From: Eledone cirrhosa
Taxonomy: Eukaryota
Assembly: GCA_964016885.1 (NCBI GenBank)
Contig: OZ024741.1
Location: 189,348,001-189,412,000 of the forward strand
Reading direction: 5' to 3'
DNA: 64,000 bases
Positions within the stretch are counted from its first letter, which is position 1; the number at the start of each line of letters is the position of its first letter. The translations under genes were made by a program, and so were the position numbers. A model generated the notes under the pieces. The model saw nothing but the letters and a program-made list of their open reading frames with translations. It was not told the origin of the DNA and made no database searches. Below, one piece after another: positions 4,795 to 48,200 of this stretch.

Positions 4795-7117
4795 CATCAT
4801 CATCATCATCATCATCAGGTTTAGCGTCCGTGTTCCACGCTTGCATGGGTTTGGACGGGGGTTTTCCCACTTGAGGCAAGAGTGGTTGTCTTGCTCGCAT
4901 AGGACGGGTTTTCTACAGCTGGATGCCCTTCCTAACACCAACCACATTTACAGTGTGGGGCTGGGAGGTTTTTACCGTGTTGCCTACACGGCCACATTAC
5001 AGCGTGGACTGTCTGGCGGGTTTTCTACAGCTGGATGCCCTTCCTAACACCAACCACATTTACAGTGTGGGGCTGGGAGGTTTTTACCGTGTTGCCTACA
5101 CGGCCACATTTACAGCGTGGACTGTGTGTTTTTTGTCGTGACACCTACACGATCTCATTTGTTTCGGCCTGGATGTTGTGGGACCAACATAACTTTACAT
5201 TGAAAGGGGCGGTGTGGAGGGACGGGGGTGTGTTTTGATAGAGGTGCCTACTGACTGTAGTAGGTTTTTACTTTGTATTTAGGTAAGGCGGGTCTTCTCT
5301 ATTACTGAGTACCGCCAAAGGTCTCGGTCCAGTGACAGTGTCTTGGAGAGGTGTAAGCGTGTGAGGTCGGAATTTATCAGCTCGTCCCATGTTTTTCTGG
5401 GTCTGCCTACTCCGTGGCTACCGTCTATCTTTATTGCCCTGCACTTTGTTATACAGCTATCGACTTTCATGCGCATCACGTGACCATACCAACGTAGCCT
5501 TCTCTCGAGTAAACAACATCTGATCCCTCTTATTTCTAATTTTTTCCTTAGTTCGTTTATGCTTTGCCGTTCACGTATATTACTATTGCACATCCAGCGG
5601 AGCATGCAAGCTTCGTTCCTCTCTAGTCTGCGTATATCCTCTGCACACAATGCCCAGGTCTCACTGCCATGCAGCATTGCTGTTCGTATGCAGGCATCGT
5701 ATAACCTGCCTTTCATTTTTAGGGAGAACCCTCTAGCGGCTAATAGTGGTATAAGCTCTCTGAACTTTTTCCATCCAGTTCTGACTCTAGCTACTGTACT
5801 TTCAGAGCACCCTCCCCCACTGCTGATTTTGTCACCCAGATAACGGAAGCTGTCCACTATTTCTATAGAACCCTCTGCGCAGTTGAAGGAGCTAGTATTT
5901 TGTGGGCACTTGCTGCTACTTATTGCACCAGAGCACCGGCCACATGTAAAATCTATGTTCTTAGTTAGCTTACCTGTGATCCCACTACATCTTTTATGCA
6001 CCCATACTTTGCATTTGGGACATAAAATGGAGTTTCTACCTACGCCTTTCCTACACACTGAGCATGGCCATTTCCCCGATGGGACCGCCGCCTTATTTTC
6101 TTTCCTACAAACTAGAACTTTAGTCTTAGCCAGGTTAATTTTAAGGCCTTTTGATTCTAGGCCGTGCTTCCACGTTTGGAATTTCTTCTCTAGTTCGGTC
6201 ATTGATTCAGCTATGAGCGTTAGATCATCTGCGTATAGGAGTTCCCATGGGCAGCCGGTCTTGAACTCCTCTGTTATAGCCTGAAGGGCAATAATAAATA
6301 GTAGGGGGCTAAGTACAGAGCCCTGATGGACACCAACTTTTACGCTAAACTCTTCACTATATTCGTTGTTAATTCTAACCTTACTGACTGTTTCTTTATA
6401 CATGGCTTGTATAGCTCTCACAAGCCATTCGTCAACACCTAGTTTTCTAAGAGACCACCAGATAATGGAACGGGGGACTCTGTCGAAGGCTTTCTCCAAG
6501 TCGACAAAAGCTAAGTATAGGGGTTTACTTTTAGCTAGGTACTTCTCCTGTATTTGTCGTACAATGAAAAGAGCGTCTGTGGTACTTTTGCCTGACACAA
6601 ACCCGAACTGCATTTCATCTAGATCAATTCTCTCTCTGATTAGTTGCGCTATTACTTTTTCCGTGACCTTCATGACCTGGTCGATTAATTTAATGCCTCT
6701 ATAGTTACTCCTATCTAGGGCATCTCCTTTTCCCTTATAGCAGTTAACGATGATGCTGCTACGCCATTCCTTCGGAACAACCCCATTCTGTACGACTTGG
6801 TTAACTATCCGGGTGACCATGGTGTGTCCCACCGAACCAGATGCCTTCAGCATCTCAGCAACTATTTCCGAAGGCCCAGCCGCCTTACCCGTCTTCATAT
6901 CTTTGATTGCCTTACTTATTATACTACCTTCAACTAACACTGCTGGTCCCTCTATTGGATCGATCTGGGGGAGACTGTCTTTCTCCCATTTGTTCTCCTC
7001 ATTTAGAAGCCTTTCGTAGTGACACTTCCAAGCTACCTTCTTATCAGCGTCGGTGATGGCAAGTATGCCATCATCGTTAAGTACACACTTCTCCCCGACA
7101 ATATCACGGTTTTCCTT

Positions 7118-7120
<3 letters not shown>
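4793..7120 (-). mobile_element. RTE-clade LINE, 5'-truncated (subfamily 1), intact RT ORF 5279-6940
   Basis: RT motifs FVDLEKAFD, QGSVLSP, YADD, FRYLG; (CAT)n tail; ~112-bp tandem duplication in the 3' UTR; (TA)n on both sides. Confidence 0.95.
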
Positions 7121-7163
<43 letters not shown>

Positions 7164-7173
<10 letters not shown>

Positions 7174-7570
7174 CAAGGGAGTGTAAACACAGAAAATATC
7201 TTAAAAAATAATAATAAATAATTAAATTCCAAAAAATTCACTGTACTTACTATATATGCGTTTACCACGGTATATTCTCTGAGAGAGAAAAGCCTTCTGA
7301 CGATGATCTCTTTCTCAATGGAAATCCACTTGGATTGTCTATTTTGGGGGGATCTGAAACCGCGGTAAAGGCACATATAGTAAGTACAGTGAATTTTTTG
7401 GAATTTAATTATTTATTATTATTTTTTAAGATATTTTCTGTGTTTACACTCCCTTGATTTTATATGTTCTGGCTTGTTAATTTATTAACTTGCTATTAAA
7501 CCGCACTGGCAGGCGGACAATACTTGTATCCTTGTATGTATTAATTACATATAGGACACATACTTTTATT
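7164..7570 (+). mobile_element. Penelope-like pseudo-LTR fragment with 5' inversion
   Basis: 7164-7271 is the reverse complement of 7359-7465; contains a hammerhead; bounded by (TA)n on both sides. Confidence 0.7.
7292..7372 (+). ncRNA. Type-I hammerhead ribozyme
   Basis: GCCTT-CTGACGA-t-GATCTC...GGGATC-t-GAAAC-CGCG-GTA-AAGGC; stem I GCCTT/AAGGC, palindromic stem III ACCGCGGT, predicted cleavage after 7367. Confidence 0.85.
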
Positions 7571-15248: not shown

Positions 15249-16102
15249 GTCGGAGGCCGTATTCAGTTAATTCAGGTTTACTTAAAACTCCATTATACAT
15301 ATTTCACTGAGGATTATTTGTTTAGATAGCCTGAGCTTCATCATCATCATCATCATTTTACATCCGCTTTTCCCTGCTTGCAAGGGTGGGACGGGAACTG
15401 ATTCTGGCTTGATTTCTACAGCCGGATGCCCTTCCTAACACCAACCTCATTTACGGTGAGTGCTGGGTGCTTTTTTGCCGTGTCACCTCCACGACCACTT
15501 TGCAGTGGAATGATAGGGACCCCAGTCCCTATCATCTCATTTCTACAGCTGAGTAAACTGGAGCGATGGGAAATAAAGTGTCTTGCTCAAGGAAACAACA
15601 CATCACCCGGTCTGAGAATTAAACACACAACCTTTCGATTGCAAGGCCAATGCTCTAACCACTAAGTCATATGCCTTCATATATATATATATATGTGTGT
15701 ATATATATGTATACATATATGTATATATATATCTCATCATCAACATCATCTTCGTTTAACGTCCATGCTAGCATGGGTTAGACGGGAGTTGTCCCACTTG
15801 AGGTAAGATTGATCGGGTGACCGTGTCTCGCTCATATAAGACTATCTGGCAGCTTTTCTATGGCTGGATGCCCTTCCTAACACCAACCACATTTACAGTG
15901 TGGAAATGGGAACTTTTTACCGTGTTACCTACACGGCACATTACAGCGTGGACTGTGTGTTTTTTTTTGTCATGACACCTACATGATCTCGATCTCATTA
16001 TCTCATTATATATATATATATAAATATATTAAATGAAGTATTTCCGTAGGAAAGGTAAAGGAAAAGAGAGTGCTCTATGTAAGCTACAGAGCTTTTTAGT
16101 TT

Positions 16103-16280
16103 TGTAATAAACAACATAAGATAATTATTTCATTTACCAATGGTTTCTTGAAGACAGATACTTATGTCTGTCTTCATTCATCAGAAAAAATATTTCTTCT
16201 GAGGAATGAAGACAGACATAAGTATATGTCTTCAAGAAACCATTGGTAAATGAAATAATTATCTTATGTTGTTTATTACA
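16103..16280. ncRNA. Head-to-head pair of hammerhead ribozymes in a palindrome
   Basis: + strand 16191-16257: tatttctt-CTGAGGA-a-TGAAGACA..TGTCTTCA-a-GAAAC-CATTG-GTA-aatgaaata. The minus-strand copy 16126-16192 has CTGATGA. Confidence 0.8.
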
Positions 16281-16298
16281 TAACTATATATATATATA

Positions 16299-17011: not shown

Positions 17012-17209
17012 CGTTCCTTTCCATTTACACCAACACATCACCTATCATCACACATCAGGCTAAATAATTTCTTTAATTTCTTTAGTCAAAATACGGCGAT
17101 AGCTTACATTTCTAATAATTTCAAATCAACTCGCTGTTTCGAAAATATTCTTACTTGACATTACAGTCGCTAAGTTTATAGCTTCTAATTTGAATGGAAA
17201 AAGATGGGT

Positions 17210-17281
17210 GATGTGTTGGTGTAAATGGTAGCACAGTGGTCCGGATAACCAAAGATGTGGGTTCGACTCCCATGTACGTCA
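17210..17281 (+). other. tRNA-like cloverleaf with non-canonical anticodon loop inside a repeat element
   Basis: Acceptor GATGTGT/GTACGTC, D arm GTGT-AAATGGTA-GCAC, anticodon arm GTGGT-CCGGATA-ACCAA, T arm GTGGG-TTCGACT-CCCAT; 72 nt; lacks U33 and purine 37. Confidence 0.75.
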
Positions 17282-17429
17282 ATACTCATCTTTTTCCATT
17301 TCTCCGAGGGTTCTTAGCCCCACTATCAGGCTAAATAATTTCTTTAATTTCTTTAGTCAAAATACGGCGATAACTTACATTTCTAATAATTTCAAACCCA
17401 CTTGCTGTTTCGAAAATATTCTTACTTGA

Positions 17430-17475
<46 letters not shown>

Positions 17476-17784
17476 TCCTCCCTCCTCTCTTTCTCTCACC
17501 ATTCTTCACTGCCTTTGCTTTATCATAAAAAATATCTTACTAAAATAACTTAACCAATTTACATAAATTCTATATTAAATTCTTCAATCTGAAGCAGAAT
17601 CTTGTCATTTCAAATATTCAGGTTGTCTTTATTGTTTTCTTTTATTGTTTTTTGGGGGTTTTTTTTGTTAACTTATTTCCGTATTCAGTTTTAATATTCA
17701 TCTGAATAAAAGAGAAAAATGCCTGCATTTATATCACATGGTTTACTGCAACCACACAACATTGCTGAAGTTTATTAATGTTAC

Positions 17785-18300
17785 ATCATACTGTGGTATA
17801 GTGATGTTACACCTCACTGGTATATTGGTGTTACATCATAGAGTGGTATATTGATATTACACCTCACTGTGGTATATTGATGTCACACCACACTGTGGTA
17901 TACTGATGTGACACCACACTGTGGTATATTGATGTCACACCACACACGTATATTGGTGTCACATCACACTGTGGTATATTGTTGTTACACCTCACACTGG
18001 TATATTGGTGTCACATCACACTAGTGTATTGGTGTTACACAACACTGTGGTATATTGGTGTCACACCACACTGTGGTATATTGGTATTACACTACAATGT
18101 GGTATATTAGTGTTACACCACATTCTGGTATATTAGTGTTATACCACACTCTGGTATATTGGTGTTACACCACAATGTGGTACATTGGTGTTACACCACA
18201 CTGGTATATTGGTGTCATGTAATGCATCTGGTATATTAGTGTCATGTGACACAAAGTGGTATGTTGGTGTTACATATCACACTGTGGTATATTGGTGTCA
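17785..18300. repeat. ~26-bp minisatellite
   Basis: About 20 diverged units of cactgtggtatattggtgtcacacca. Confidence 0.9.
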
Positions 18301-19130
18301 TGCGACATCTCATGATAAAACACATCCAGTACACTCTGTAAAATGGTTGGTGTTATGAATGGCTTCCAGCCATAATAAACATGTAAAATAAAGGTTGAGT
18401 GGATTCTTCAATTGTGTCTAGGACACAAAATCCTCTCTAGTATTGGTAACACATAAAAATTACCCAGTACACTCTGTAGAGCGGTTGCTGAGATGAAAGT
18501 TATCCCACTGTAGAAAACTTACTAATCATAACATCAAGAGGACGCTTCAGTTGCATCAGAGACATTACAACCTCCCTAGTATTAGTGCCAGGATAAAACA
18601 CACCCAGTATACTCAGCACATGGGAACAAATGTAAGGAAGATGCACCCTCCTCACCTACCTGAGAGGTTAGTGGCTCTTGCTAAATACTGACTTTGTCTG
18701 TGACAATCCATCCAGCCCTTGCTAGCAGGGAAAATGAGTGTTTAAATGATTATACTGTAGTTTAATATACTGTAGTTCTACTTGACACAGTATTTTAATG
18801 GACAATAATTTTGTAGTTTACTTGTGTGACACAAGAACACAGCTGCGGTATGCTGGGGCTACATGACAAGAACATTGTGGCTTACTGGGGCCAAACTATA
18901 AAATGTCTATCCATGTCTAAGATTTTAACAATTCCTTATAGAATTTACATGTGTGTGCTTATATATGTTAGTTACAACAGTGGTTGCCAACCTTTCTAAA
19001 ACCGAGGAACCCTCTAAATATTTTGAATTCTTCACAGAACCTATACAATACAAAACTTTTCAAAAAAAAATAATAAAGTATTTATTTATTTTAGTGTTTC
19101 ATGCGTGTGTATGTAATCGAACACAATTAA

Positions 19131-31980: not shown

Positions 31981-32160
31981 TTAAAGAAACTAGAGTTTTG
32001 ATGGTTGGGTGGGTAGTTTGATACTTAATTTCTGCATCTGATGGGTTCTCTTTCATGATTTCCTATCTTTCACCTGAGTTGCTATGTATTGTATCGCCCA
32101 CTAACTAAATTACTATGAATAATTATTAACATGCCTAGTACTCTAGTTTTCAGCCAATTG

Positions 32161-33718
32161 AGCCACTCTACTTGGCATTTGTCGACCTTGAGAAAGCCTT
32201 TGACAGAGTGCCACGTGCAGTAATCTGGTGGGCTCTTAGAAAACTAGGAGTAGATGAATGGCTTGTGAAAGCGGTACAAGCCATGTATAGGGGAGCAGTC
32301 AGCAAAGTTAGGATTGGCAATGAGTATAGCGAGGAATTTAGCGTACAGGTTGGGGTCCACCAGGGCTCTGTTCTTAGCCCTCTCCTGTTCATCATAGTCC
32401 TGCAGGCAATAACGGAGGAGTTTAAGACCGGATGCCCATGGGAACTCCTGTATGCTGATGACCTCGCACTCATAGCTGAATCTATGGTAGAACTAGAGAA
32501 TAAATTCCAAACCTGGAAGCAGGGACTAGAGAGAAAGGGCCTCAAAGTCAACATGACAAAGACTAAGGTCCTTATAAGTAGACGAGAAAACAGAACCCAG
32601 ATCCCCTCAGGGAAATGGCCTTGCTCAGTATGTAGGAAAGGTGTAGGTAGGAACTCCATTCTTTGCCCCAAATGCAAACAATGGGTACACAAGAGATGTA
32701 GCGGGATCTCAGGAAGCCTAATTAAGAATGTAGGATTCACATGCAGCAGCTGTGCTGAAACAGCAAGCAAACAGCCACAGGAAACAAGTACCACCAATCT
32801 CTGGGAGGGCCCTGTAGAAACAGTAGACAGCTTCTGCTACCTAGGTGACCGAATTAGCAACGGAGGTGGGTGCTCAGAAAGTACAATAACTAGGGTAAGA
32901 ACGGGATGGAAGAAGTTTAGGGAACTACTACCACTGCTAGCTACAAAAGGCTTCTCCCTCAGAATGAAAGGCAGACTGTATGATGTGTGTATCCGAACAG
33001 CGATGTTGCATGGTAGTGAGACCTGGGCGCTGAAGGTGGAAGACTTACGTAGATTAGAGAGAAACGAAGCCTGCATGCTCCGATGGATGTGTAACAGTAA
33101 TATACGTGAACGACAAAGCATAAATGAATTGAGAGAGAGACTGAGCATAAGAGGAATCAAATGCTGCGTGCAGGAGAGGCGGTTACGCTGGTATGGACAT
33201 GTGATGCGTATGAAGGATGACAGCTGCATAAAAAGGTGCAGAGCACTAGAAGTTGATGGAAACCGCGGAGTGGGGAGACCCAAGATGACTTGGGATGAGG
33301 TGATAAAAGCCGACCTTACCCAACTACACCTCTCAAAGTCAATGACACACGACCGTGACTTCTGGCGTCACGCAGTAATACAGGGTACCCGACCTCCCAT
33401 GGGTACATGCTGAAGCATATAAACAATATGCCCCCCCCCCCCCCCCCCACCGCAAGGTGGTCGTGGAGGTGCCACGGCAAAAAAGCACCCAGCCCACACT
33501 GTAAAGTGGACGTGTAGGCGCCACGAAAAAGCACCCAGCACTCACTGTAAATGAGGTTGGTGTTAGGAAGGGCATCCAGCTGTAGAAATCAAGCCAGATC
33601 AGTTCCTGTATGAGCAAGGCATGGTCAGCCGACCAGACACTGCCCACAACAGGACAACCCGTCTAACCCATGCTAGCGTGGAAGAACGGACGTAAAACGG
33701 TGATGATGATGATGATGA
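32161..33718 (+). mobile_element. RTE LINE subfamily 2, 5'-truncated; ORF 32172-33413 open
   Basis: RT motifs, PHD finger, distinct 3' UTR, (GAT)n tail. Confidence 0.95.
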
Positions 33719-43471: not shown

Positions 43472-45173
43472 CACAGGTCTAGTTCAGTGTGCATGCCTGT
43501 TGAATACTCAGCCATGTTCACTATATTTCAAAACGTAGGCAGTTTAATTGATCAAACAACTGGAATACTTATCATTATTAAGATCCAATTAGTTGAGATG
43601 ACTAATCTCACCCTCTTTTAATATGAGGTAAACCAAAATAATTCCCAGTTCCACGAGTAAATCTGACCCAAATAAACTGACCAAAAACAATAAATTCTAA
43701 TGAGATGGTTCATTGTCTAATTCAATTCGATTATTTACTTTTACCAAAAATAACCAAAGCTTTTCTTTGAAAACCATAGTAAGTTCTTGAAAATAATCAG
43801 ATTAAAAGCTTCCAGTTTGGACAGAACTTGTCAGAGAGACTGGAGACAGCTTAACTTTGATAGAGAGAAGAAAGAGGAGGAGGGAGTAAGTGATGGAACT
43901 TGTTTTACTTATGATTAAGATATATATAGAGTGAGAGAGGGAAGAAGAGTAAAGTGTATGACTATGTAAGAGTGAGTTTATGTGAGTGTGGGGGTTTGTC
44001 TATGTGTGTGTGAGTGTGTGAGAGTCTGTTTATGTGTGAGTGGCTGTATATTTGTGCCTGTGAGAGTAGTATGTATGTATGTATATAACCAATTTCTTCT
44101 AACAAGAGCTGGTTTTGTTAACTATCTGATAAAACCTGATCCAGGGAGAAATTGAGCCAACTGTAAGATGGTTCAACTGCCACACTCCACGGTACATTTT
44201 CAGTGAGTGTGACTTGATTTGCAAGTCACCTGGTGGACAGACCAGACATGGTAAAATGCAGGAAGGTACACCCCAACCAGTTTTACCAGGAGACAGACAG
44301 TTCAAGTATCACATCTGTGAATGTGGCTGAAAAACAAAAGTGGGTCTGAAAAGTTACCTGCATGTACATGATCATGCAATGTTCAATGAAGGGATGGCAC
44401 TCTTCTGACAAGAAGTAGTAATCAGCATGTATGTATATTTATGTCAAGTCACTCTTCAGCATACTGGTCACGTGTAACCCAGTACAACTTGTGCATGGTT
44501 AGGTTGTCGGTGACTAAACCAGCAACCCCACCAAGCTTACTTGGTGAGGAGGGTGATTTTGGACACCCTGCGGGATGAAATACAAGACCTGTCAAAGAGC
44601 GGAGGAACTCAGGAGAGTCAGCGGCCATCCAATAAAGATTATTATTTTTTTTTTTTTTTGCCTTCATTAAGACATCTCTCTAGGCCTACAACATCCACAC
44701 AACAACTCCACCTCACCACATACATGCCAATATGTCTATAGCATGCCAAAACACCACACCCCGTAATTCACATCAACCATCACTCGTCACTATGCTCACC
44801 CCCCCCCCCCACCTATCACACATGCCAAAACATTCCTCATAGCTACACCACCAATCAAAACAACATAAACTGACCACCATACCAACGCGAAACGTTACAG
44901 ACATTTCTATGCTTTATATGTTCATGCTGTCATTACAACAGCAGAGGTCCGACAGGCTTTTGATTCCAGACTCGGGCAAGATCGATACAGATCGAACCTT
45001 GAGCTAATCAATAGCGAAACGTGTGTCACCAATCAATAAATGTAATGAAGGCATAACAAATTGTCCTTGTATTATTATATTTACATTCTGTTTAGCCCTA
45101 CACCTCGCCACTGACGAGAACCTAAACATCGAGTGCTTACCTGGGTGAACAGTAACTTCATGTTTCACTCCCT

Positions 45174-45222
<49 letters not shown>

Positions 45223-45225
<3 letters not shown>

Positions 45226-48200
45226 AAAAAACGATGTTATAAGCTTTTCTGGGTGGGAAACGACGATGGGCTGGGTGGAGTAGGAATCATGGTAGCAGAA
45301 AAGTGGGCAGATAAGATAATAGACGTAAATAGAGTGAACGACAGAATAATTAAAATACGACTTGTCCTCAATAGAACTACGGTGACAGTAATATCTGCGT
45401 ACGCACCCCAATCCGGACTGCCCGGCACTATAAAAGACAGATTCTATGAGACACTGATGCTAACTACCTCCCAAATATCCGACAGTGACTATATAATTAT
45501 CGCAGGCGACCTAAATGGTCACGTTGGACAACATTGTGACGGCTACGACGAAATCCATGGAGGCTATGGGTTTGGTACTAGAAATGAGGAAGGCTCCAGA
45601 ATCCTGGAATTCTGTGATGCAAATAACCTAACTATCTGTAACACTAACTTCAAAAAACGTGACAATCACCTGATCACCTATAGATCCGGGGAACACACAA
45701 GCCAGGTAGATTATATCCTTACCAGAAGACGTGACAGAGTGTCTGTTGTAAACACTAAATCCCTCCCCCATGAAGAATGCACCTCCCAACATAGACTGAT
45801 AATTAGCGACCTCATAGTCAGGACGAGACGTACTCGACAACAGAAGAGGACTATCCTCAGGAGGAAAATATGGAAGCTAAAGGACCCCACAGCCAGGAAT
45901 AAATTTCAAAGCATATTACTTGATGCTTTCGACAGTAAGGAAGAACATTTAGAGTCGGACAATATAGAGGGAGAGTGGGAATTTCTGAAAGCAAACCTGC
46001 TGTTGGCGACAGACGAAGTCTGTGGCTGGAGCAGGCCTGTAGGCAGGAGGAGAGTAACATGGTGGTGGAACAGTAAGGTGGAGGGGTCAATTAAGGCCAA
46101 AAAGCAGGCTTGGAAAGTATGGCGGGATGGGGGAAGTAGAGAGGACTATCAAGTGGCCAGGAGGGAAGCTAGGAGACAAGTGTACTTAGCAAGAAGGGAA
46201 GCTGAGGAAAGAAAGTTCAAGCATGTTCTACAACGCGATGACCAAAAACGTGAGGTGTTCAGGATTGCTAGGCAATGCGTCAAGGAAAACCGTGATATTG
46301 TCGGGGAGAAGTGTGTACTAAACGACGATGGCACACTTGCCATCACCGACGCTGATAAGAAGGTAGCTTGGAAGTGTCACTATGAAAGGCTACTAAATGA
46401 GGAGAATAATTGGGAGAAAGGCAGTCTCCCCCATATCGACCCAATAGAGGGACCAGCAGTGTTAGTCGAGGGGAGTATAATAAGTAAGGCAATCAAGGAT
46501 ATGAAGACGGGTAAGGCGGCTGGGCCTTCGGAAATAGTTGCTGAGATGCTGAAGGCATCTGGCACGGTGGGACACACCATGGTCACCCGCATAGTTAACC
46601 AAGTCGTACAGAATGGGGTTGTTCCGAAGGACTGGCATAGCAGCATCATCGTTAACTGTTATAAGGGTAAAGGAGACGCCCTAGATAGGAGTAACTATAG
46701 AGGCATTAAATTAATCGACCAGGTCATGAAGGTCACGGAAAAAGTAATAGCGCAACTAATCAGAGAGAGAATTGACCTAGATGAAATGCAGTTCGGGTTT
46801 GTGTCAGGCAAAAGTACCACAGACGCTCTTTTCATAGTACGACAACTACAGGAGAAGTACCTAGCTAAAGGTAAACCCCTCTACTTAGCTTTTGTCGACT
46901 TGGAGAAAGCCTTCGACAGAGTCCCCCGCTCCATTATCTGGTGGGCTCTTAGAAAACTAGGCGTTGACGAATGGCTTGTGAGGGCTATACAAGCCATGTA
47001 TAAAGAAACAGTCAGCAAGGTTAGAATTAACAACGAATATAGTGAAGAGTTTAGCGTAAAAGTTGGCGTCCATCAGGGCTCTGTTCTCAGCCCACTACTA
47101 TTTATTATTGCCCTTCAGGCTATAACAGAGGAGTTCAAGACAGGCTGCCCATGGGAACTCCTATACGCAGACGACCTGACACTCATAGCGGAATCAATGG
47201 CCGAGCTAGAGAAGAAATTCCAAACATGGAAGCACGGCCTAGAGTCAAAAGGACTTAAAATTAACCTGGCTAAGACCAAAGTACTAGTTTGTAGGAAAGA
47301 AAACAAGGCGGCGGTCCCTTCTGGGAAATGGTCGTGCTCGGTGTGTAGGAAAGGCGTAGGTAGAAACTCCATTTTATGTCCTAAATGCAAAGTATGGGTG
47401 CATAAAAGATGTAGTGGGATCACAGGTAAGCTAACTAAGAACATAGATTTTACATGTGGCCGGTGCTCTGGTGCAATAAGTAGCAGCAAGTGCCCACAAA
47501 CTACTAGCTCTTTCAATTGCGCAGAGGGTTCTATAGAAATAGTGGACAGCTTCCGTTACCTGGGCGATAAAGTCAGCAGTGGGGGAGGGTGCTCTGAAAG
47601 TACTGTAGCTAGAGTCAGAACTGGTTGGAAAAAGTTCAGAGAGCTTATACCACTATTAGCTGCTAAAGGGTTCTCACTAAAAATGAAAGGCAGGTTGTAC
47701 GATGCCTGCATACGAACAGCAATGCTGCATGGCAGTGAGACCTGGGCATTGTGTGCAGAGGATATACGCAGACTAGAGAGGAACGAAGCTTGCATGCTCC
47801 GCTGGATGTGTAACAGTAATATACGTGAACGGCAAAGCATAAACGAACTAAGGAAAAAATTAGAGATAAGAGGGATCAGATGTTGTTTACTCGAGAGAAG
47901 GCTACGTTGGTATGGACACGTGATGCGCATGAAAGTCGATAGCTGTATAACAAAGTGCAGGGCAATAAAGATAGACGGTAGTCACGGAATAGGCAGACCT
48001 AGAAAAACCTGGGACGAGCTGATAAACTCCGACATCACACACTTACACCTCTCCAAGACAATGTCACTGGACCGAGACCTTTGGCGGTACTCAGTAACAG
48101 AGAAGACCCGCCTTACCTAAATATATAGTAAAACCTACTCCAGCCAGTAGGCATCTCTAACAAAATACACCCCGTCCCACCACCCCCACCCCCACCCGAT

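Follow-up and report, generated by a model that had tools for sequence, protein, structure and literature searches.

A dispersed tRNA-bearing repeat of Eledone cirrhosa with the insertion architecture of Penelope-like elements and no detectable hammerhead

We describe an abundant, dispersed family of 271-nt repeats in the genome of Eledone cirrhosa that carries a tRNA-like cloverleaf and behaves like a non-autonomous Penelope-like element (PLE), failing the defining tests of retrozymes, Sm-alpha-type repeats, SINEs and TRIMp3 elements. The element likely borrows the copying enzyme of a PLE, and its tRNA part likely supplies a promoter of its own that replaces a self-cutting ribozyme. Full-text literature searches yielded no description of a hammerhead-free, tRNA-bearing PLE parasite; Repbase, Dfam and article supplements may hold the sequence under another label.

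The copy from which the family was recognized lies in the window, the 64,000-nt stretch of DNA that was analyzed, surrounded by RTE LINEs in an intron of what reads as a dynein-like gene (these names come from the translations). We number the unit as window position minus 17158, such that the full unit (u1-271) occupies 17159-17429 and the cloverleaf u52-124. The copy opens with a short inverted 5' arm on the minus strand (17021-17046), which is a reverse copy of u45-70, matches 17203-17228 at 96% and stops at the preferred 5' end of the family. All further parts are on the plus strand. First comes a 5'-truncated upstream partial unit or pseudo-LTR (u167-271; 17054-17158), 96% identical to 17325-17429 at a spacing of 271 nt. 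The full unit begins with a leader (u1-45; 17159-17203), present in all three age tiers of the family, which lies upstream of a pile-up of copy 5' ends (u45-55, mode u48; 17203-17213) at the putative Pol III start. The 5' arm of a clamp helix (u35-51; 17193-17209) leads into the cloverleaf (17210-17282, the start being placed at 17209 or 17210) with its A box at 17217-17230 and B box at 17260-17270; a second 5'-end pile-up (u104-121; 17262-17279), possibly due to reverse transcriptase (RT) stalling on folded RNA, covers the T-arm and the 3' strand of the acceptor stem. The 3' arm of the clamp (17284-17300) includes a conserved T5 run resembling a Pol III terminator (17291-17295). The body then extends to the short 3' end at u232 (17301-17390), and a 39-nt PLE-type tail (PMC8557442; PMC11167929) spans the interval from the short to the long 3' end (17391-17429), where the copy ends directly at an unstranded (TA)n target (17430-17474).

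An earlier note on this DNA had read the direct repeats, the inverted arm and the terminal (TA)n correctly. Its cloverleaf with A and B boxes and the anticodon loop CCGGATA was recovered by ARAGORN as Ser-GGA and by the Rfam tRNA model at 42.4 bits (gathering threshold 29), and its 17-bp clamp stem folds in the window copy (17188-17305, plus strand, z = -4.2). We likewise found no LINE tail or target-site duplication (TSD), and no hammerhead: Rfam returned no ribozyme and the core word CTGANGA is missing from both strands. The upstream partial unit and the downstream unit differ at three of six polymorphic columns, and the window copy is one of the rare chimeras of two haplotypes. Elsewhere in the window we noted RTE-type LINE frames at 45115-48120 (+), 5279-7237 (-) and 32139-33413 (+), one of which, about 1000 aa long, is apparently open; a near-perfect 95-bp palindrome with no spacer and TA on both sides (16097-16286), which looks like another two-armed TA insertion; and a partly self-complementary minisatellite with about 21 copies of a 26-bp period (17765-18310).

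Searching the same genome with the unit revealed a dispersed family, not a single-copy locus, with young, middle and oldest tiers; the middle tier is about 80-85% identical, and the middle and oldest tiers have the same layout. Five such searches gave 2911, 980, 987, 46 and 708 first-look candidates, numbers that are rough lower bounds, and the best 40 matches of each were scored, so that the copy samples are not random draws. The resulting 150 loci were merged into 131 insertions, 127 of them uncut by a locus edge. Pieces of the family also occur in contigs of eight sequencing runs not recorded as RNA, with several other organisms represented; neither ends nor strand are visible in these contigs. 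The note's 1.4-unit state describes the window copy well but is not the family norm: only 25 of the 101 insertions from four short-query searches cross a unit junction, a count from which the merging rule missed a few.

The 127 insertions have 211 outward 3' ends, of which 109 are long (u254-271, nearly all u266-271), 81 short (u205-240, mode u232) and 21 elsewhere, the long and short sites being 39 nt apart; the flank contains TA at 99 of the 109 long and 69 of the 81 short ends. Hence, the note's shared 3' end before (TA)n holds for the long end (~17424-17429), but the family has a second one, at 17390 in the window copy. Among 85 two-ended insertions, 62 pair a long with a short end, one has two short ends, one two long ends, and 21 have one non-canonical end. 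Thus, 62 of the 64 insertions with both ends canonical are of the long-short type, and where the sets had been assembled without selection for the long end the figure is 39 of 41 (p = 4e-10). This pairing is the "tail" signature of PLEs. According to Craig (2021), these elements are marked by a bias for (TA)n, by partial tandems, by a truncated copy in reverse orientation and by a tail of 30-40 bp on one side (PMC8557442). Frangieh (2024) showed that the tail measures how far apart two internal start sites of the RT lie; nicking and extension affect both strands, and the reaction in vitro does not require the hammerhead (PMC11167929). Partial tandems (pLTR), 5' truncation and an adjacent inverted arm are all present here, and together with the two 3' ends, the tail and the TA target they bear out the PLE-type architecture proposed in the note. 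In 40 one-armed insertions, the search for TSDs yielded nothing beyond A/T words or matches of 4-5 letters, a duplication of TA being indistinguishable from the target itself. Folding of the tail into a hairpin is weak (z = -0.6).

Potential helpers are encoded in the same genome. We surveyed 75 PLE loci in nine clusters, drawn from about 10,600 first-look GIY-YIG candidates; Naiad families, with their N-terminal EN, lie outside this survey. Three loci contain intact-looking, Neptune-type frames combining an RT with a C-terminal GIY-YIG domain: L106 (4306-7122, -; 938 aa), L107 (2488-5022, +; 844 aa) and L108 (1775-5065, +; 1096 aa). The CX4-5CxxC linker, which Craig ascribes to Neptune/Nematis (PMC8557442), is present in five of six PLE proteins. 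Both short and long ends, bordered by TA, occur in PLE families A, B, D and E (12 long, 6 short and 2 other in family B; 7, 9 and 1 in family D). BLAST found no autonomous partner sharing the unit sequence among the 75 loci, the sole match being one nested copy, and local alignment of the unit to 17 PLE 3' regions stayed at shuffle level (z <= 1.0). The word ACTCG occurs 5-8 nt past the short end in the otherwise unrelated tails of families A, D and E (e.g. L115, L118 and L123), with a similar word further out in family B, and the two younger tiers of the element have it a few bases into their tail; it might be a recognition signal for the RT, but it is missing from the oldest tier and we treat it as a lead only. 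At five loci (L074, L082, L148, L211 and L250), copies of the element sit inside the TA run that ends an autonomous PLE copy, which indicates that the element and the PLEs have targets in common.

The head of the element is closest to tRNA-Gln among the Gln, Thr, Ala, Val, Asp and Ile-type genes compared: its D arm matches genomic tRNA-Gln in 17 of 18 letters in the middle tier and in 18 of 18 in some of the oldest copies. The cloverleaf combines this Gln-like D arm with a Ser anticodon and a short variable loop, and the anticodon loop drifts between tiers; hence, neither the conserved anticodon nor the isotype agreement of a functional tRNA gene is seen. We compared the stems in 25 young, 14 middle and 25 oldest copies (a sub-group of three being poorly aligned). 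Four stem changes separate the young and middle copies from the main oldest group, and all keep pairing via G.U on the plus strand; the B box of the oldest tier is altered (TTCGTGT loop). The note's internal, clamped cloverleaf is supported at the family level, as the clamp too is conserved, with one compensatory change. Its pairing is kept via wobble changes, with one pair broken in the young tier; 21 of the 25 young copies carry a C.A mismatch in the clamp stem, where the window copy has T. The oldest tier has a 9-bp outer clamp helix with a two-sided switch from A-U (13 copies) to U-A (7 copies) and three mismatches (p = 0.001, a single lineage event), whereas young and middle copies show one-sided pair changes only. 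A run of T5 or longer is kept in 22 of 25 young, 9 of 14 middle and 18 of 25 oldest copies. The conserved outer clamp suggests that leader sequence preceding the 5' pile-up is part of the working RNA and pairs across the conserved T5. Derivation of the clamp from the flanks of a tRNA-Gln gene is a weak lead, its leader and trailer words occurring together in 2 of 52 pattern hits, some of which are element copies.

Two further groups of tRNA-like genes came to light in these searches. A tRNA-Gln gene cluster with repeated CUA-anticodon (amber-type) variants is located at ~168.21-168.28 Mb of G000:C1 (L287-L299), and dispersed, near-identical tRNA-like genes with common flanks and varying anticodons (Val, Ala, Asp and Thr labels; L188 and L190-L198) probably represent another tRNA-derived mobile family.

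The absence of the hammerhead core extends to the family. CTGANGA was found on neither strand in any of 80 young full units or 27 oldest copies, and tRNA alone scored above the Rfam threshold, with no ribozyme. Partial hammerhead-core 7-mers do occur: TTGANAA in 4 of the 80 young units (plus strand) and 12 of the 27 oldest copies (minus strand), and ATGANTA commonly, in young copies on the minus strand of the clamp arm.

The 5' ends of the arms point to how the RNA may begin. With stops occurring at a background rate of 0.6 per 100 nt, 6 of 20 and 10 of 21 arms stop at u45-55, where 1.3-1.4 are expected, and 26 of 54 stop at u104-121, where 5.7 are expected. The head pile-up (mode u48) lies 0-6 nt upstream of the tRNA +1 (u52) and just inside it, with many ends about 11-13 nt before the A box; the middle tier has the same pile-up, as judged by eye, and the remaining arms run through the leader and the unit junction. 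Such a position is more readily explained by Pol III initiation than by RNase P cleavage, and from these DNA ends we infer that the head pile-up probably represents the true 5' end of an RNA initiated by Pol III, which lends support to the note's suggestion that the tRNA mimic supplies a Pol III promoter. The T-arm pile-up would reflect stalling of the RT on the folded T-arm. An m1A58 modification was considered as the cause of this stall and rejected, u108 not being hypermutated (2 of 194), as was an upstream TATA promoter, the TATA-like leader word being missing from the middle tier. Stops at u45-55 seem rarer once an arm is on its second pass: 1 of 10 arms, versus 16 of 41 during the first (p = 0.14), a hint that templates may be endless or multimeric.

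Variation within insertions bears on the nature of the template. Within an insertion, neighboring units and the two opposed arms tend to have the same haplotype: polymorphic columns disagree in 7% of comparisons (23/325 and 16/235), versus 32% between insertions, and rare alleles are common to the units of one insertion in 16.7% versus 1.2% between. These shared haplotypes fit repeated reading of one molecule, but also a tandem source of uniform sequence or the activity of a single subfamily at any given time. Haplotype chimeras are few, the window copy being one of them. Two long arrays (~10 and >=32 units) contain variants common to subsets of their units, and both expanded by later DNA duplication. 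We had considered them as proof of rolling-circle copying and rejected this, with 11 shared variants in L253 where about 1.5 are expected; the count for L252 does not exceed chance, yet the same unit pairs have many variants in common. L252 (G000:C4, ~264.915-264.924 Mb) and L253 are satellite-like arrays with higher-order sharing and the same subfamily haplotype.

The model that we favor, with modest confidence, is that tandem copies give rise to a longer-than-unit Pol III RNA, which a Neptune-type PLE would prime internally; its RNA steps are proposed on the basis of the DNA copies. Pol III would start at u46-48, some 4-6 nt ahead of the cloverleaf, in an upstream unit of a tandem locus, leak past the first T5, cross the junction into the next unit and stop at the T5 of that unit, where the full clamp can form, giving a longer-than-unit RNA with repeated ends. 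An RNA ending at or beyond the next T5 would account for both the 5' pile-up and the conserved outer clamp. The PLE protein would then nick both (TA)n strands and prime internally, at u232 for one end and at u266-271 for the other; internal priming has been reported in vitro for Poseidon (PMC11167929). The RT may stall at the T-arm or drop off at the RNA 5' end; alternatively, it may move to the repeated end, or read on in a multimer, so that the tandem is rebuilt. The cloverleaf would thus act as promoter and the clamp as a shield against RNase P/Z rather than a cleavage signal. In yeast, RNA helices beside short T tracts enhance Pol III release (PMC9278858), and we regard the clamp as a candidate termination switch. 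By the same token, a T5 right after structured RNA should end Pol III transcription well, so the first read-through needs leakage, and this is the weak point of the model.

The main rival, which we consider rather unlikely, retains the PLE helper but has as template a covalent 271-nt circle or a long multimer, ribozyme-free, read by rolling RT. It draws on the seamless junctions, on the common haplotypes and rare alleles of units and of both arms, on an outer clamp that requires the leader in the same molecule, and on the fewer head stops on the second pass. The strong head 5'-end pile-up speaks against it, unless unligated or nicked molecules are invoked, as do the derived variants shared among units in both long arrays, which mark growth at the DNA level, and the chimeric window copy; furthermore, neither a ribozyme nor another circle-making step was found. 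The rolling-circle copying suggested in the note is compatible with the shared haplotypes, but the pile-up points to linear 5' ends, and the two long arrays grew by DNA duplication.

It appears improbable that RNase P and/or RNase Z cut a multimeric RNA at the cloverleaf in lieu of a hammerhead, as the note had proposed. The cloverleaf fold is indeed conserved while the anticodon is not, and some 5' ends fall at u51-54; however, u48 is the commonest end, many of the ends, at u46-51, likewise precede +1, and the clamp pairs leader with trailer, thereby lengthening the acceptor stem. Lengthening the acceptor by 4 bp strongly impaired cleavage by PRORP3 (PMC4797305), a protein-only RNase P of plants, so the comparison is indirect. 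An ordinary LINE-dependent tRNA SINE, with tandems and inversions arising by L1-type twin priming and local duplication, is largely refuted and very improbable: the pile-up at the tRNA head, the abundance of RTE LINEs in the window and the 21 of 85 two-ended insertions with one arm at a non-canonical end would suit it, but the two arms have sequence in common and terminate at two fixed positions, 39 nt from each other, with one tail per insertion, TSDs are absent from the 40 one-armed insertions, and the leader upstream of the tRNA is inherited. Pol II transcription from flanks or arrays, the cloverleaf and clamp serving RNA stability or RT recognition alone, would sidestep the T5 problem and suit the altered B box of the oldest tier, but it has very little likelihood as it leaves the pile-up ~11-13 nt upstream of the A box unexplained.

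Several known systems share individual traits with the element. Sm-alpha and Sj-alpha of Schistosoma are likewise tandem SINE-like units, apparently transcribed by Pol III (as would be predicted for the element), that require tandem copies to propagate and are related to repeats derived from tRNA-Gln-TTG, the isotype nearest to the element's head; however, Sm-alpha carries an active hammerhead, and the accounts consulted name neither a PLE helper nor a tail signature for it (PMC6765202; PMC2770079). The non-LTR retrozymes of animals, for which an origin as non-autonomous derivatives of PLEs has been proposed, also consist of small non-coding units in tandem, comparable in length, but are defined by a type I hammerhead per unit and by circular RNAs (PMC7229834; bioRxiv 10.64898/2026.07.22.740005). 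In the element, which is known here from DNA copies, the tRNA cloverleaf replaces the hammerhead, and no homology to their pLTRs was found.

The closest resemblance in insertion structure is to the EN+ PLEs (Neptune, Naiad) and the non-autonomous Chlamys (MRC1), which are described as having partial tandems, 5' truncation, an inverted arm, a 30-40 bp tail at one end, a (TA)n bias and no discernible TSD, Naiad and Chlamys also being without canonical hammerheads (PMC8557442; PMC11167929). The element differs in having no ORF and a predicted tRNA-type internal promoter; moreover, non-autonomous Chlamys elements generally match the 3' sequence of an autonomous family, a match not found for the element. 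TRIMp3 elements (Helenus, Ajax, Cassandra) are also non-autonomous with a small-RNA-derived Pol III promoter within the repeated unit, and the Cassandra transcript runs from one repeat into the following one, so that its ends are repeated; however, they are LTR elements with a PBS, a PPT and 4-5 bp TSDs (PMC10886601), none of which is present in the element, and the element's 5' ends vary. Finally, tRNA-derived SINEs, including those of octopus (Ohshima and Okada, 1994), have a comparable tRNA head with A and B boxes and 5' ends located there, and the element, too, has a tRNA-derived region with these boxes at what its DNA copies indicate to be the RNA 5' end. It departs from them in that no LINE tail or TSD was found, its leader is inherited and its ends are of the PLE type. 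The repeat annotation of Octopus vulgaris gives SINEs and PLEs by class only (PMC13282606).

It is conceivable, though we propose this tentatively, that the element represents a third class of Pol III parasites beside the SINEs with their LINE helpers and the TRIMp3 elements with their LTR helpers: ribozyme-free and PLE-dependent, its clamped tRNA mimic would be at once promoter, position-dependent terminator and nuclease shield, and its terminally redundant or circular RNA would be read round more than once. If so, it would offer a 271-nt model for the formation of PLE pseudo-LTRs. How PLEs make tandem and inverted insertions is still an open question (PMC8557442; PMC11167929).

Circles made by hammerheads are a long-standing proposal for these tandem and inverted structures, and the element forms the same structures without a hammerhead. 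Its unit is short enough to be synthesized, and the ends of its many young copies record where the RT starts, stalls and stops, which would permit a direct test of a circular against a terminally redundant linear RNA. The pairing of one long with one short end in two-armed insertions constrains how a PLE dimer primes both sides of the break. More broadly, the family suggests that some invertebrate repeats annotated as tRNA SINEs or tRNA pseudogenes may depend on PLEs rather than LINEs.
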